Shown here: piece by piece, positions 9,001 through 18,000 of the stretch
Layout: each line of letters starts with the position of its first letter
How positions within the stretch are numbered: position 1 is the stretch's first letter
From: a virus
Virus genome (UHGV): UHGV-0327171
Strand: one strand, 5' to 3'
DNA length: 19,757 nucleotides
Position numbers: made by a program

Positions 9001-12000
9001 TCCTGATACCCGGTCATTGTGCCGGGTTTTTTTATGGAGTCTGTATGGCTTATTCCGATGAACAGCGCCCTGAAGCGCAATTTGGCAACCAGAACCGCAA
9101 CAGCCTGAACATTCAGCAGCCGGGCGAGACTGACCGCTATGATGCGTTTTTCTCCGATCCCAATCGCTGGAAGGACAACAGCACGTCGTTCAGCCTGGGC
9201 GATGTATTGCCAACTATGGGGAAAGGTGTCGCCCAGTCCGTCCGGGGGGCAGGGGAAATGGCCCGTGGACTCGGTGATGCGATGATTCAGAGCCCGGTAA
9301 AAACAGGGGCGCGTATTTTAAATGAGTTCAGCCGTATGGGGCTGCCGGGAGTCGCAACTGTTCAGGATATTTTTGTCGGTGGCAGCAAGGGGGCGGATGA
9401 GGTCATCGACACTCTGCCTGATGGAAAAAATGCGGTTACTGATACTGTCGGTAAAGGTCTGAAGGTCACAGGCAAGGCAGTCAGTGGCGGCGCTAAAGCC
9501 TCGGATGAATGGCTGACTGGCAAGATGTCGCCGGGGGCGCAGCGGGCGCTGAATACACCGATGACTGAAGGATATGATGATTCTGCGGTCTGGGTGGCGA
9601 AGGGCGTAAACCTGATTGGTGCCCTTGTACCTGATATGGTTGCAGGCGGTGTGGCTAAAAAGGTGGGTGATGTCACATTGCGAAAAACGCTGACCGCCGG
9701 GCTGGAGAAAAAATACATCGCGGCAGGGATGCAGCCGGAAAGAGCCACGGCACTGGCAGCAGAAGCTGTCGATAAAAAAATGCCGGATTTATTCCAGGCG
9801 GGCCTGATCACCCATTCCACAGCCAGTGCACAGGGGCAGAGTGCAATGGCAGCAGCAGACTCTGTTCTTAACGCGGATTACTCTGAGCTGGCGAAGTCCC
9901 CGAAATTTCAGCAGACATTTTTGTCAATTGATGCAGATCCGCAGCACGCACAGCTTACTGATCGCCAGAAAATGGATCTGGCAAAAGAGCGTGTTGCCGA
10001 TGAGGTGCGCGCGCAGCTGGCAACCGATCCTGAATTGCTGGCTGTGAATGCCATGGCGGCAAAACTGGGCGATGCTCAGTTGCTTAATCTGGCGATGCGG
10101 GGCACGGCGAAGACCGTTAAAAGCGGCATTGTCAGAAATGCCACGGAACAGGGGACGATTAATGCGGCGCAGGGTGGCTATTCACGCTATCAGGAAAACA
10201 CGGCATTGAGTGAGACCGCCGGAATGGATGTGTCACCGGGGGAGGGCGTGGCTGACGCAACGATCGAAGGTGCAGCCCTTGGTGCAGCGATGGGCGCACC
10301 GTTCGGTGCGGTTGCCGGATATCGTGGAAAACGTCAGACGGCAGATGATACCGCCATGCGTGAGGCTGAAAGCGTTCCTCAGGACGAATCGGCTCCGCAA
10401 CCCGAACCGGTTGATCCGGTGGCACAGCATCGTGAATCCATGCAGGGGATGAATCGCGAGCAGCTTCTGGAACAGTATGCTGATGCGGATATGGCACATG
10501 AGGGAGACACGTCTGCCGTTCATCGCCGGGAAGCCGCCAGCCAGCTGTTGAATGAACTGGATGAACAGGCGAAGCGACAGGCGGTAATGGATGAGCTGAA
10601 GGCGAAGCCGCGCCCTGAACTGCTTGAGGAATACCGAAAACTCAGCCTGAAGGAAGGGCGTACTGATACTGAAGAGCAGCAGTTACAGGCTATCCGTGAT
10701 GTGCTTCGCCCTCAGCAGGAGGCCAGACCGGAGGCACAGCCACAGCCGGAAAATGCGGATGATGGCGACGGGAGTATTTACCCGACGGTGCGGTTCCGGG
10801 ACCCGAATGAAGTCCGCATTGAAATTAACGGGAATGGTGCGTCCAGACCAGCGGAACGCATTGAAAAGGTGCGCCCGGACAACCGTTATTTCACGGATGA
10901 GAAAAGCGCCATGGGGAGTGATGTTTTCCGTAATGCCGCCGCCACCGGCCTGAAACCGTCCGTAGTGAAGAAAGGCGAGAATCAGTATGCCGTTGAAATG
11001 GATAATCCTGCGTTCTCTGAAGATGTGGCAACGGAAACCATTAACACCCTGGCTGACGGAGAGCGTATTGCTGATGCTGACCCGATGGAGCAGCCCGCGT
11101 TCATGCGTGACCCGCGATTCCGTGGTTTCACGGGGGATGATACGGAGGTACAGGCCCGCCTTGCCCGTGGCAACGCGCCGACGGCGGAGGAGCTTGTACG
11201 TTCACAGATGGCTGAAGGTGATGCCGGTCCGACAGCACAGGAGTTAACTGAGCGTCCGCGTCTGCCCGCCCCCGGCGATATTCATCCCGGACAGGGATAT
11301 CCGTTACCGGGAGAGGTGGCGCGTACGCCGGATGAGAATCAGGCCGGACGTGGTGGTCGTTTTACCACAACCGGTGAGGTTAAGGGCCAGAGTTTCCAGA
11401 AAGGACGTGCTCCGGCACCGGAAAACGCCGCTGGTCGCCAGGGGGAAATACTGGAGGGCGAAACAGTTCGTCGTGGTCTGCCGTCACCGGATGAGCAGAA
11501 CGCCACAGCGCTGGTACGTGAAGGTCTACCGGCTCCGGACATTACACACAATGTCCGTATGCCTCAGCCTGATCAGCTTCCCCGAACTGTTCGTAACTCA
11601 TTGCCTGAGCTCGCACAGCAGGCAGAAGTACGTCGACAGGCCGGAGGAAATCGTGACATCCCGCAGCCTGAGACAATCGCACCTGAATCTGAAACAACTG
11701 TCTCTACTGACAGGGAAGCTACTGTGCGCGGAGGTGAAGTCAGGGGCAAAAAAATTGAAGACTTTGGCGAGGAAATTAAAGGGGCAGCCAAACACCGTTA
11801 TGCACAGCTTGCTGAAACACTGGGTAAAACGCTGGAAGACAGGGATTATGCCACGCAGCCGCTGAGCAAACTGTTCCCGAAACCGGACTACGCAAAACTG
11901 GCGAGCGAAGGGGCTGATGCTGACACCCTGGCAATGATAGCGCTGTATCGTAGCGATATTCCGGCGAAGACGAAACACAATACGGCTGGCTGGGGGGAGA

Positions 12001-15000: not shown

Positions 15001-18000
15001 TCAACCCGAAAATGCCGGACGGCGGTTCGGGGATGACCAACGCGGAGGCGGCGGAAATCATGCAGCGTGTGCGTAACAGTGGAAAACAGGCACAGTATGA
15101 CCGTCTGGCAGGGATTGTTGACGATATGCTGGCCCGTCGCCGTGAGCTTATCCGTGAGGCCGGACTGGAAGAGAGCGGTGTGGTGGATGCCTGGCAGAAC
15201 GCCTACCGTTACTACGTTCCCCTGAAAGGTCAGGATGTTGACGGTGTGGTGTCACTGCCCCGTACAGGTAAGGGCTTCACCATCGGCGGACGTGAAAGCA
15301 GGCAGGCCATGGGGCGTGCATCCCGCGCACAGTCTCCTTCCACTCAGGCGATACAGGATTTGAGCGAATCGCTGATCCGCAATCGCAAAAACGAAGTGGG
15401 TAACGCCTTCCTGAAACTGGTGCAGGATAATCCCGATAAGGATTACTGGCAGGTATTCACTGATGACAAACCGGACACCATGCGGGCGATTGCAGAGCGT
15501 GTTGATCCGGAAACCGGCGAAACCCGTCGCGAAGTTGTTGAACGTCCGGTGCCTATGGCAATGATGGCGGATCGCTACTTCACCACCAAAAAGGACGGCA
15601 AAACTTACTACATCAAACTCCATGACCCGCGCCTGATGCGTGCGATGAAGAACATGGGGCCGGAAACCAGTAACGCCGTAATCCGTACGCTGGGGAAAGT
15701 TAACCGTTTCCTGGCAACGGTGAACACGTCGTATAACCCGGAATTTCTGGTCAGTAACTTCATCCGTGACGTGCAGACGGCGGTGATGAACCTGAAGGCT
15801 GAGCAGGGAAGGAGCGACGGTAAACTGAAAGGGCTGGATAACTTATCCGCCCTGGCTGTGGTGAAAGACAGCCGGTCTGCCATGTCTGCCGTATACGCCA
15901 GTCTGCGTGGTAAAACCCTCACGGGCAACGGTGCGCAGTGGCAGAAGGTGTGGAAAGAGTTTGTTGAGGATGGAGGTAAAACCGGCTGGTTTAACATGGG
16001 TGACCTTGAAGGCCAGCAGAAGGAAATGGATCGCCTTGTATCGCTGGTGAAGGGGGGATGGAAAGGCCAGAGTATCGGTGCATGGAATTCGTTCCTGAAC
16101 CTTGTGGAGGATGCCAACGGTGCGGTTGAAAACGCACTGCGTCTTTCTGCCTATAAGCACGCCCGTGATGCCGGTTTGTCACGCCAGCAGGCGGCGTCTC
16201 TTGCCAAAAACATGACGGTGAACTTTAACCGTCGTGGTGAGCAGGGAGCGCTGATGAACTCGCTGTATATGTTTGCCAACGCCAGCATTCAGGGGACCGC
16301 AAACCTGGTGAGAACGCTCGGACATCTTAATGGCGACGGGCCGTTACCGGAGCGCCTTCGCTGGAAGAATCTCAATGTACCGCAGAAAATCGCGCTTGCA
16401 GCTGTGGGAGCGGGTTATCTGCTTGGCTCGCTTAATCGGAGTGTGGCTGGGGAGGATGATGACGGGGTTAACTGGTATGACAAGGTACCTGATCATGTGA
16501 AAGAGCGTAACCTCGTCATTATGAAATCGATGTTCGGGGGCAAGGCCGGTGAGTACTGGAGTATTCCTCTGCCTTACGGGTACAACGTTTTCTTCCTGCT
16601 CGGGCATACCGCTGAAGGTGTGGCGGCGGGTGACCTGACGGCGTCCCGTGCTGCCGGTAATGTTGTTGGTGGTGTGCTTGGTGCATTCAGCCCGATTGGC
16701 AGTGAGACGTCGGAAACCTTGTCCGGGGCATTGCTGAAAAACGCAGCGCCGACCATTCTGCGTCCGTTTGCGAATCTTGCCATGAACGAAAACTTCATGG
16801 GGGCGCAGATTTACCAGGAGAACATGCCGTTTGGTACACCAAAACCTGACAGCCAGCTGGGAAGACGTTCAACGCCAGAAGCGTACAAGGCGTTTGCATC
16901 CTGGCTGAATGCGTTCTCAGGTGGCAGCCAGTATCGTCCCGGCGCGGTGGATATCACACCGGAATCGCTGAAATTCTGGATTGACTATATCTCCGGAGGG
17001 ACAGGGCGCTTCATTTCCAAAACCACGGATGCGGCGGTGAAATCGCTGAATGGTATTGATATACCGGAGCAGCAGGTGCCCTTCCTGGGGAAAATTTCAG
17101 GTGAGGTGATGCCGTATGCTGACCAGCAGAAGATGTACGACCGGATGACAGAGGTTGCGCAGTATCACGCAGAGCTGAAGAGTCTGACCGGTGCAGAAAG
17201 AACGGCGTTCATTGACGAGAACAACGGAAAATTGTCGATGAACGGGCTTATGCAGGATACCCGGAAGAGACTGAAGGATTTGCGTAAACAGCGTGATGCC
17301 ATTTACGCCGACAGTACTCTCAGTCTGGCGCAACAGTCGGCGATGGTGAAATCGGTTGAGCGGGATATGAAAATTGCCGTGGATCGGTTTAACCGCGAGT
17401 ACAACAAAAAAGTGGGAGTGGAGTAAAGAACATGCCCCGTACGGAAGTGCGGGGCATGCTTAACGGGATGTGTACATAAATGGGTACGGATATGACGATT
17501 ATTTTGGTGCTTTCTGTATTTAAATCAATTGGTTAATGCTTGTATTCATTATATCCATTTAACTAAGAGGACAATGCGGCATGAGTATACCCGCTAATGG
17601 ACTGCGGGGTAAGTACGCTGCCGCTCGATTGCTTAAACCCTCGCCATTTATGCTGGGTTTTTATCATTTTTCTTAATGTTTTCCGCACGTTCTGCTTTTT
17701 GGCGTGCTTCTGCTTTACGCTTGTTGCTCATGTCGTTACGAATCTGTGCATGACTCATTAACGCGAAGATAAAGGTGCCGCCGCAGATGTTCCCCGCTAA
17801 AGTAGGTAGTGCGAAGGGCCAGATGAAATCGCTCCAGTGCAGCGTGCCGTTAAACACCAGATAGAGGATTTCAACAGAACCGACAACGATGTGGGTGGTG
17901 TCACCCAGTGCAATAAGCCAGGTCATCAATATAATCACCACAATCTTTGCCGCACCCGCAGCAGGAAACATCCAAACCATAGTGGCGATCAGCCAGCCGG

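Follow-up and report, generated by a model that had tools for sequence, protein, structure and literature searches.

A giant cysteine-free protein of an argW-integrated Stx-phage-type prophage: a probable encapsidated effector polyprotein with zincin domains of two clades and a predicted RNase

The window analysed here, a stretch of 19,757 nucleotides (nt) from the virus genome UHGV-0327171, contains the gene of a giant protein of 2793 amino acids (aa), carried by a prophage of the 933W/phi24B type that is integrated at argW. With a probability of roughly 0.7, this protein is an encapsidated effector polyprotein, ejected at infection and built as a chassis that holds a cargo. It comprises an N-terminal module (N2), a linker, a Pfam LPD5 domain followed by a first zincin module with the motif HEWFH (module 1), a second zincin module with the motif HEIIHH (module 2), a MuF-C domain predicted to be an RNase, and a C-terminal block of about 900 aa (C block), as collected in Table 1. 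Proteins of this kind have been catalogued before. Computational studies of 2013 and 2017 had already covered the class with its LPD domains, a phage-type metallopeptidase (MPTase) clade with an additional His and an HExxH..D motif, an HExxxH clade, and the RNase of the MuF-C/PBECR type (PMC3650047, PMC5512222). In a previous reading of the window made from its sequence alone (hereafter the sequence-only reading), the activity of the protein had been called unassigned and possibly undescribed; a status as undescribed is not supported, since the class and most of the domains were known from those studies and the phi24B ortholog was described as a virion protein in 2026. The present analysis refines this recognised class by adding the assignment of the zincins to two clades, a reinterpretation of LPD1, the linkage of module 2 to the C block, the correction of the MuF-C label, the layout of chassis and cargo, and the cysteine-free signature; these results refine current views and overturn none of them. 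Stx-converting phages of this short-tailed kind spread the genes of Shiga toxin.

Full-length matches to the gene, with about 95% nucleotide identity, were found in 186 phage records, all of Stx-type short-tailed phages and including phi24B, P13374, VT2-Sakai and Ss-VASD. By these matches, the prophage is of the Stx-phage type, that of 933W/phi24B. Among complete E. coli genomes, 426 of 5426 carry the gene, which the Prokaryotic Genome Annotation Pipeline (PGAP) names 'LPD5' or 'LPD38 domain-containing protein'. The orthologs gp47 of phi24B and ORF78 of P13374, together with the 933W-type proteins, are colinear over 2793 aa, share 90-100% aa identity per segment and have the same Pfam domains and the same position as last late gene; in P13374, ORF78 is the final late gene. 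The Pfam domains LPD5 (aa 1051-1200, 4e-45), LPD1 (aa 1361-1440, 2e-23), MuF_C (aa 1750-1841, 3e-18) and LPD38 (aa 2476-2681, 1e-48) all score far over their cut-offs. With these four domains and the two zincins, the protein belongs to the polyvalent class, as had been proposed: it combines several unrelated domains, including LPD, MPTase and PBECR domains, and it is encoded among virion and late genes, as the last morphogenesis gene after those for the nozzle, fibre and internal proteins. It shares with the polyvalent proteins described previously a large multidomain build, a virion-gene context, LPD domains, a zincin MPTase hub and PBECR/MuF-C (PMC5512222), but it differs from typical members in that the commonest cargo (ADP-ribosyltransferase, methylase-helicase, ArdC-N) is absent.

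The virion association of this protein is known from its ortholog. In a bioRxiv preprint of April 2026, phi24B gp47 was found in purified virions by mass spectrometry, with 10,962 peptide-spectrum matches (given in the supplement), a number exceeded only by the capsid protein. The protein is absent from the cryo-electron microscopy map and from the tail model, and the authors propose that it is an encapsidated ejection protein (10.64898/2026.04.10.717836). In the same study, gp47 counts peak in the top gel bands and tail off downwards, while its peptides, pooled over the gel bands, map to the N-terminus, the linker, module 2 and the C block; in addition, an unassigned density in the lumen is gone in ejected virions (10.64898/2026.04.10.717836). 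Packaging of the whole polypeptide is thereby shown, in the literature, for an ortholog that is about 95% identical. The giant protein of the Bcep22-like phage JC1 (gp69) is also virion-associated. Since a crude normalisation of the spectral counts gives about ten or more copies of gp47 per virion, and the giant gene makes up about 14% of the phage genome, the protein probably plays a central part when infection begins, in its first minutes.

The four genes directly upstream of the giant gene seem to belong to the same cassette. By gene order and size, their products of 213, 148, 83 and 421 aa were equated with gp51, gp50, an 86-aa protein and gp48 of phi24B, all of which were detected in virions (10.64898/2026.04.10.717836). 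In Vibrio phage D75, moreover, genes 16-18, 20 and 21 are homologs of the four genes and the giant gene, in conserved synteny. Their products are probably co-packaged internal or ejection proteins. The 83-aa product (window 7449-7700) is a glycine-zipper protein annotated as 'bacteriocin' in P13374, and its synteny with the giant gene is kept in D75. Its phi24B counterpart was treated as a contaminant by the authors of the preprint (10.64898/2026.04.10.717836); it may instead be a genuine membrane-active internal protein.

A further property shared by giant proteins of this sort is the absence of cysteine. No cysteine is found among the 2793 aa (coding region 9045-17423), nor in gp68 of Ralstonia phage GP4 (3224 aa; record 7050-16721), the giant protein of Vibrio phage D75 (3066 aa; record 5506-14703) or the virion RNA polymerase (vRNAP) of phage N4 (3500 aa; record 14524-25026, - strand). 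Among giant relatives longer than 1500 aa, 99 of 112 are cysteine-free, and the nozzle protein of the same window holds nine cysteines. This absence is consistent with an unfolded passage through the tail and the oxidising periplasm.

The gene itself is a single frame of 2793 codons with an ATG start, uninterrupted, as the sequence-only reading had it. The start codon is preceded by a GGAG Shine-Dalgarno sequence, and an in-frame stop at 8991-8993 makes an upstream ATG, GTG or TTG start impossible. The annotated starts elsewhere give longer proteins (2806 aa in P13374, 2811 aa in phi24B), unlike the gene of the window, where only the ATG at 9045 is open; those longer N-termini would need read-through of a hairpin. 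This terminator-like hairpin (window 9008-9034) has seven pairs, five of them G-C, and a run of seven T; it lies 10 nt 5' of the giant ATG, within the late operon. Compared with P13374 ORF78, the protein is colinear (2793 aa in both) without any indel. The ratio of nonsynonymous to synonymous divergence (dN/dS) and dS itself were estimated by crude codon counts, pairwise against P13374, in 13 segments. In 11 of them, including the linker, dN/dS was 0.03-0.28, and the pre-LPD5 and LPD5 segments had no aa differences, which by these counts indicates purifying selection in every segment showing aa change. Because of this colinearity and the low dN/dS, the open reading frame (ORF) is considered a real, selected coding sequence rather than the product of a frameshift or an assembly artefact. 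Frameshifts in the real assembly had been named in the sequence-only reading as grounds for abandoning its view; the frame proved to be intact. Along the gene, dS against P13374 varies as a mosaic between 0.01 and 0.57, which points to recombination between Stx-type phages inside the giant ORF. The extremes are the pre-LPD5/LPD5 region (11745-12629; 100% aa identity), with a dS of 0.01-0.04, versus the MuF-C segment (14145-14681), with 0.57.

The composition of the protein is as described in the sequence-only reading: the first 500 aa are Gly/Ala-rich (19-29% Gly+Ala), and the linker (aa ~441-900) has 18-31% Pro+Glu+Gln versus 9-17% in most other parts, with a mean hydropathy near -1. Scans with Rfam and for tandem repeats returned nothing relevant. 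Likewise, the whole protein compared by sequence with PDB chains gave nothing at E <= 1, and neither the unassigned tiles nor the family members of module 2 and N2 had a significant match when scanned with Pfam.

Further scans bear on the idea that the protein would act like DarB, with incoming DNA modified or shielded against type I restriction. PHROG 616, whose function is not assigned, matches the whole length of the protein, and PHROG 10089, labelled 'DarB-like antirestriction', covers aa 2351-2681; the annotation 'DarB-like' is also carried by the homologs in GP4 and BcepIL02. However, the match to PHROG 10089 is confined to the shared C-terminal LPD38 region, and DarB is recognised by an N6-adenine methyltransferase together with a superfamily 2 helicase, plus LPD36. 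No Walker A, DExD/H or NPPY-type motif occurs in the protein, in line with the earlier statement that P-loop, helicase and methyltransferase motifs are absent; no helicase or methyltransferase family was assigned to it in Pfam, NCBIfam or PADLOC, the PADLOC scan being without any match. An antirestriction role of this type is therefore very improbable, and is refuted at the level of domain content. The analogy to DarB drawn in the sequence-only reading holds in its generic part, as a giant packaged protein, but not for the methylase-helicase cargo.

Both HExxH motifs lie exactly where they had been reported: HEWFH spans nt 12894-12908 (aa 1284-1288) and, with an offset of 267 residues, HEIIH spans nt 13695-13709 (aa 1551-1555). 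The protein's own composition would yield 0.034 such motifs by chance, and both are essentially invariant among homologs. A protein of great length with a Gly/Ala-rich N-terminus, encoded at the end of the tail-gene region, could also be a structural tail component such as a tape measure or a fibre, or a non-enzymatic protein in which the HExxH motifs occur by chance. Such an explanation can hardly be correct: searches gave no match to a tape-measure or fibre family, the kind of match that the sequence-only reading had named as grounds for its own refutation; the podovirus tail and fibres of phi24B are fully accounted for by other proteins, with gp47 absent from the map; and hundreds of homologs keep the motifs unchanged, in zincin folds. 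The family searches, the phi24B map and the motif invariance together refute it. The conservation and the predicted fold support instead that both segments are metallopeptidase domains, as first suspected.

Module 1 has the features of the CLCA_X/phage-type MPTase clade. The NCBIfam model CLCA_X (NF041907) aligns with aa 1182-1437 over profile positions 3-245 of 250 (E = 1.7e-44) and spans the Pfam domain 'LPD1', with a score of 152 bits that is below the curated cut-off of 260, so that module 1 is a homologous domain and not a member by the curated threshold. In 61 homologs with less than 70% identity, H1263, H1284, E1285, H1288 and D1291 are invariant, as are three residues within 'LPD1', namely E1375, R1379 and E1382. 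The motif HEWFHSLD, with the invariant D1291 and H1263, corresponds to the signature of this clade, in which a His ends strand 2 and an Asp is found three residues past HExxH (Iyer et al. 2017, PMC5512222). The CLCA_X family has a conserved Asp soon after the motif, with a consensus printed as HExxHxxxD (Lenart et al. 2013, PMC3650047), while in module 1 this Asp follows the second His by three residues. Module 1 thus shares with CLCA_X the whole profile and an invariant Asp, and the CLCA_X family is likewise concentrated in phages and plasmids; unlike CLCA_X, module 1 is embedded in a giant protein, behind LPD5. In the AlphaFold2 model of LPD5 and module 1, which has a predicted local distance difference test (pLDDT) score of 89.8, the conserved HExxH is on a helix after a three-stranded sheet; a Foldseek search of this model against the PDB gave no significant match and no fold assignment for LPD5. 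From these alignments, Pfam 'LPD1' appears not to be an independent domain; it would make up the C-terminal half of this CLCA_X peptidase.

The unit formed by the pre-LPD5 segment, LPD5 and module 1 (aa ~903-1445) also occurs as complete stand-alone proteins of mobile elements, with 470-900 aa. These were found in a word-indexed protein collection, which was searched with this unit and with the profile of module 2 and from which no protein longer than about 900 aa was returned in either search. One of the stand-alone proteins, from a Gemmobacter genome, is encoded beside a PcfJ gene and a large gene of helicase-family type (AAA_34/Helicase_C_4), with Tn7-type transposition genes nearby.

For module 2 there is no Pfam model, no PDB sequence covering aa 1465-1690, and only chance matches of its profile against the PDB. 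An exhaustive HMMER search found it in 429 representative clusters, nearly all of giant proteins of 1000-6000 aa, while the same profile in the word-indexed collection found 13 short fragments only. Of the aligned homologs, 140 of 142 keep H1551 and all 142 keep E1552 and E1607, which is the conservation pattern of an HExxH...E gluzincin. The motif is HExxxH in 126 of 143 family members (HEIIHH here), and so the conserved second His may be H1556 and not H1555. An HExxxH-type motif, a downstream Glu and a zincin fold are the features that identify the HExxxH clade, and module 2 shows all three; the core of its model has a pLDDT of 82-97 and a zincin topology.

The sequence-only reading had taken the two segments for duplicated modules of the SprT/WLM type. 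The shared hydrophobic pattern on which this was based is real: a strand-turn-strand precedes each HExxH, and a profile-profile alignment brings 'AAAHYEP-GEVAINL...HEWFH' into register with 'VHAFYRPDKREIVLVADN...HEIIH'. Nevertheless, BLASTP of module 1 against module 2 detected no similarity, and hhalign gave a probability of 39%, with the alignment of the family profiles confined to the strand-helix core, at the superfamily level. Neither module is specifically SprT- or WLM-type by family profile. A tandem duplication is accordingly rejected, and the two segments belong to two distinct zincin clades, an assignment added here.

Zincins of this kind could also be toxin-like proteases directed against defence or regulatory proteins of the host, with the polyprotein acting intact. 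This option, which was considered explicitly by Iyer et al. (PMC5512222), is possible, although on balance unlikely. The nearest folds include anthrax lethal factor, botulinum light chains and the regulator-binding MtfA; N4 vRNAP, ArdC and TraC1 are transferred unprocessed; and the LPD5-CLCA_X unit is found alone in a mobile-element context. The likeness to lethal factor, MtfA (M90) and Pro-Pro endopeptidase (PPEP, M34) amounts to 11-14% identity, with Foldseek E >= 0.04, which is not significant, and H1263 and the Asp at H+3 are features of the phage clade that these gluzincins do not have. Module 2, on the other hand, is locked to the C-terminal chassis and not exchangeable, which fits a housekeeping or processing function better, and peptides of gp47 were found in numerous gel bands under that of the full-length protein; neither point is decisive. 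A host-directed role and self-processing are compatible and may coexist in the same protein.

The MuF-C domain scores 66.1 bits with PF18819, for which the cut-off is 27.6. In 36 diverse homologs K1745, H1752, S1816 and Y1837 are invariant, H1752 and S1816 being kept in 100%. Iyer et al. defined MuF-C as one of the PBECR domains, which have the BECR fold and are predicted to act as metal-independent RNases, with one His on the first helix and one Ser or Thr on a late strand (PMC5512222). Given that H1752 and S1816 are intact, the domain has an active-type configuration and is predicted to be a PBECR RNase. The phi24B preprint labels MuF-C a 'metallopeptidase' and gives it a role in peptidoglycan degradation (10.64898/2026.04.10.717836), a label that does not fit a domain defined as a BECR-fold RNase; the real metallopeptidase domains are modules 1 and 2. 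Three labels are thus to be corrected, since MuF-C is not a metallopeptidase, 'LPD1' appears to be part of a peptidase, and module 2 is a zincin clade of 429 clusters that lacks a model.

The same preprint proposed a purely mechanical role, in which the protein would serve ejection or form a conduit and its metallopeptidase would break down peptidoglycan, allowing the tail extension to reach the inner membrane (10.64898/2026.04.10.717836). The GP4 homolog, with its N-terminal SLT lytic transglycosylase domain, indicates that envelope penetration is among the tasks of the family, and the hydrophobic segments of the giant protein are Gly-zipper-like. This explanation is doubtful for the protein of the window. 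The peptidase that it invokes is MuF-C, a BECR-fold RNase domain according to both Pfam and Iyer et al. The zincins of the giant protein look like endopeptidases that act on proteins and peptides (MtfA, lethal factor, PPEP, minigluzincins), and none of the scans scored a cell-wall hydrolase family; in particular, SLT, lysozyme, M15, M23 and NlpC domains were not found here. The conserved RNase residues, and the stand-alone LPD5-zincin proteins beside genes of the conjugative-element type, would be left unexplained as well.

To study how these domains are arranged, the protein was divided into 13 segments, and these were mapped onto 149 giant relatives. N2 is flanked by Gly-rich conserved hydrophobic segments (aa ~182-205 and 405-428) and has no known family or solved structure (its profile gave chance matches against the PDB, and Pfam scans of its family members were empty). 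The C block (C1-C2-LPD38-tail) terminates at most 7 residues from the C-terminus in 19 of 22 relatives and has a single family-conserved hydrophobic segment (aa 2445-2467). By tblastn it was found in 357 phage records, of Stx, Vibrio (42% identity), GP4-like (26%) and Bcep22-like (27%) phages. Module 2 is usually directly upstream of the C block, for example in Vibrio phage D75 and in GP4, where the stretch immediately before C1 (aa 2149-2348, HEMFH) is matched by the hidden Markov model of module 2. The protein of the Stx phages has its PBECR domain as an insertion between module 2 and the C block. The middle region varies among relatives. The layout described here is that of a fixed chassis (N2; module 2 with the ~900-aa C block) around a variable cargo.

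The giant proteins of GP4 (gp68), of the Burkholderia phages Bcep22, BcepIL02 and JC1, and of D75 are alike in having module 2 with the ~900-aa block (26-42% identity) and in being encoded at the end of the morphogenesis genes; D75 also shares N2, and phi24B and GP4 have a similar portal-tail architecture. What differs is the cargo, which consists of SLT and LPD3 in GP4, of a match to the HepA (SNF2-type ATPase) superfamily in JC1, and of LPD5-CLCA_X with PBECR here. On this basis it is tentatively suggested, as a rather unlikely extension, that module 2 and the C block form a conserved, self-contained device for release and translocation in one lineage of T=9 podophages (933W/phi24B, GP4, Bcep22, D75-like). 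If this were true, the C block would dock the protein in the capsid and carry it across the envelope, while the HExxxH protease would cut off the upstream cargo, here a protease of the lethal-factor-like kind and an RNase. A complete lack of cysteine would then be a mark by which proteins that pass unfolded through a phage tail and the oxidising periplasm could be predicted in general.

The mechanism proposed for the effector polyprotein is inferred, from ejection and the roles of the end modules to self-processing, RNase activity and targets. Many copies would be packed within the T=9 capsid, alongside the products of the four upstream genes. At infection, the protein would exit through the portal and the nozzle, unfolded, with the DNA or before it. 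The end modules would serve in encapsidation and in crossing the envelope, by analogy with N4 vRNAP, and one or both zinc proteases would cut the polyprotein and possibly host proteins too. Freed in this way, the RNase and protease cargo would be active in the newly infected cell within the first minutes; this cargo is here the LPD5-CLCA_X-gluzincin unit of the stand-alone type (aa ~903-1445) and the PBECR/MuF-C domain. Experimental handles are offered by the protease sites E1285 and E1552 and by the predicted RNase site formed by H1752 and S1816.

The comparison with N4 vRNAP (gp50) holds in outline, since both proteins are giant, cysteine-free and encapsidated, with a zincin domain, and N4 vRNAP is injected, as is proposed here; the RNA polymerase of N4 vRNAP has no equivalent in the protein of the window. 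In N4 vRNAP, a C-terminal region containing the zincin is needed for encapsidation and an N-terminal region for injection (PMC5512222). Homology was rejected, because hidden Markov models of both zincin families and of all 13 segments gave no match to it, and the likeness is one of analogy only. Ejection or internal core proteins of podoviruses (T7 gp14-16, P22 gp7/20/16, the N4 vRNAP system) are encapsidated, leave with the ejected DNA, and form or cross a conduit through the envelope. Of these traits, encapsidation is known for the ortholog; in sequence, the giant protein resembles neither N4 vRNAP nor any PDB chain.

Several points weigh against this mechanism. Ejection, cleavage and the protease and RNase activities are inferred only, for the giant protein as for its close homologs. 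The roles of N2 and the C block are read from position, conservation and weak hydrophobic segments, with no structure or family matching them. The spread of gp47 over many gel bands could reflect degradation during storage, as the sample had been stored for six months. N4 vRNAP is packaged unprocessed despite its zincin domain (PMC5512222). Module 1 has several candidates for the third zinc ligand, namely D1291 (100%), E1337 (92%), E1375 and E1382 (both 100%). Finally, in the closest complete genome, that of E. coli JNEC-KY203 (NZ_AP045179.1, 1499000-1548500; 99.5% identity over the whole window), the argW prophage is an IS1-truncated remnant of about 34 kb. There, an IS1 has taken the place of the whole stretch that starts past gam and runs up to the tail-fibre genes, so that the remnant is without replication, Q, lysis, terminase, portal and capsid genes, and some of its early genes are pseudogenes. 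In a host of this type, the giant gene may be silent and unpackageable.

Table 1. Features of the window that are discussed in the text, with their coordinates.
Feature	Coordinates	Strand	Remarks
Giant ORF, 2793 aa, 0 Cys	9045..17426	+	Ortholog of phi24B gp47 / P13374 ORF78
Terminator-like hairpin (9008-9027) with T-run, then GGAG (9036-9039)	9008..9039	+	
N2 module, aa 171-440	9555..10364	+	Near the N-terminus of 41/149 giant relatives
Pro/Glu/Gln-rich low-hydropathy linker, aa 441-900, lineage-specific	10365..11744	+	dN/dS ~0.16 (crude)
Pre-LPD5 segment and Pfam LPD5, aa 901-1200	11745..12644	+	N-terminal part of the aa ~903-1445 unit
Zincin module 1, aa 1196-1440, predicted CLCA_X-type gluzincin including 'LPD1'	12630..13364	+	HEWFH 12894-12908
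Zincin module 2 (predicted), aa 1465-1690	13437..14114	+	HEIIHH 13695-13712; invariant E1607 13863-13865; no Pfam model
MuF_C/PBECR predicted metal-independent RNase, aa 1750-1841	14292..14567	+	K1745, H1752, S1816, Y1837 invariant
C-terminal block, aa 1880-2793, including LPD38 (aa 2476-2681)	14682..17423	+	
Four upstream genes, 213/148/83/421 aa, all 0 Cys	6334..8976	+	Synteny, phi24B virion counterparts
attR core, 25-bp copy of the 3' end of tRNA-Arg (argW)	17549..17573	+	Right end of the prophage

In the remnant of JNEC-KY203, the 8.4-kb giant ORF is intact. The argW 3' end at the left end of the prophage in that genome is TTATATCCATTTAACTAAGAGGACA, the same 25-bp sequence that is repeated downstream of the giant gene; this repeat is taken as the attR core, and the prophage therefore ends 123 nt past the giant stop codon. 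It is followed by the host genes yfdC (17648-18580, - strand) and mlaA (18833-19630). A more distant relative, with 96.4% identity, is found in the commensal strain G6/7 (NZ_CP060061.1, 1452000-1501500), whose argW prophage is nearly complete and has no stx. Between Q and the lysis genes, the normal position of stx, it carries hsdM/hsdS (type I) and a gene for a YXWGXW protein; its terminase gene is frameshifted, and its capsid protein is annotated as 'N4-gp56 family'. Unlike the Stx phages, the prophage of the window sits at argW with closest relatives that lack stx and are truncated or decaying, and in the source strain of the window the giant gene may be a recently stranded relic.

Further upstream in the window, a 46-aa ORF of the Hok/Gef toxin type (5642-5782) lies between lom and the internal-protein cassette, with no Sok-like RNA beside it at the Rfam gathering threshold. 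The ORF at 705-2408, to which PHROGs give the label 'internal virion protein', has a homolog in GP4 gp74 (E = 4e-59). From its size, the gene order and the homology between the phi24B and GP4 nozzles described in the preprint, it appears to be the counterpart of the phi24B nozzle gp57; the PHROGs label appears misleading. The ORF at 2405-3673 would then appear to encode the central fibre or needle gp56.

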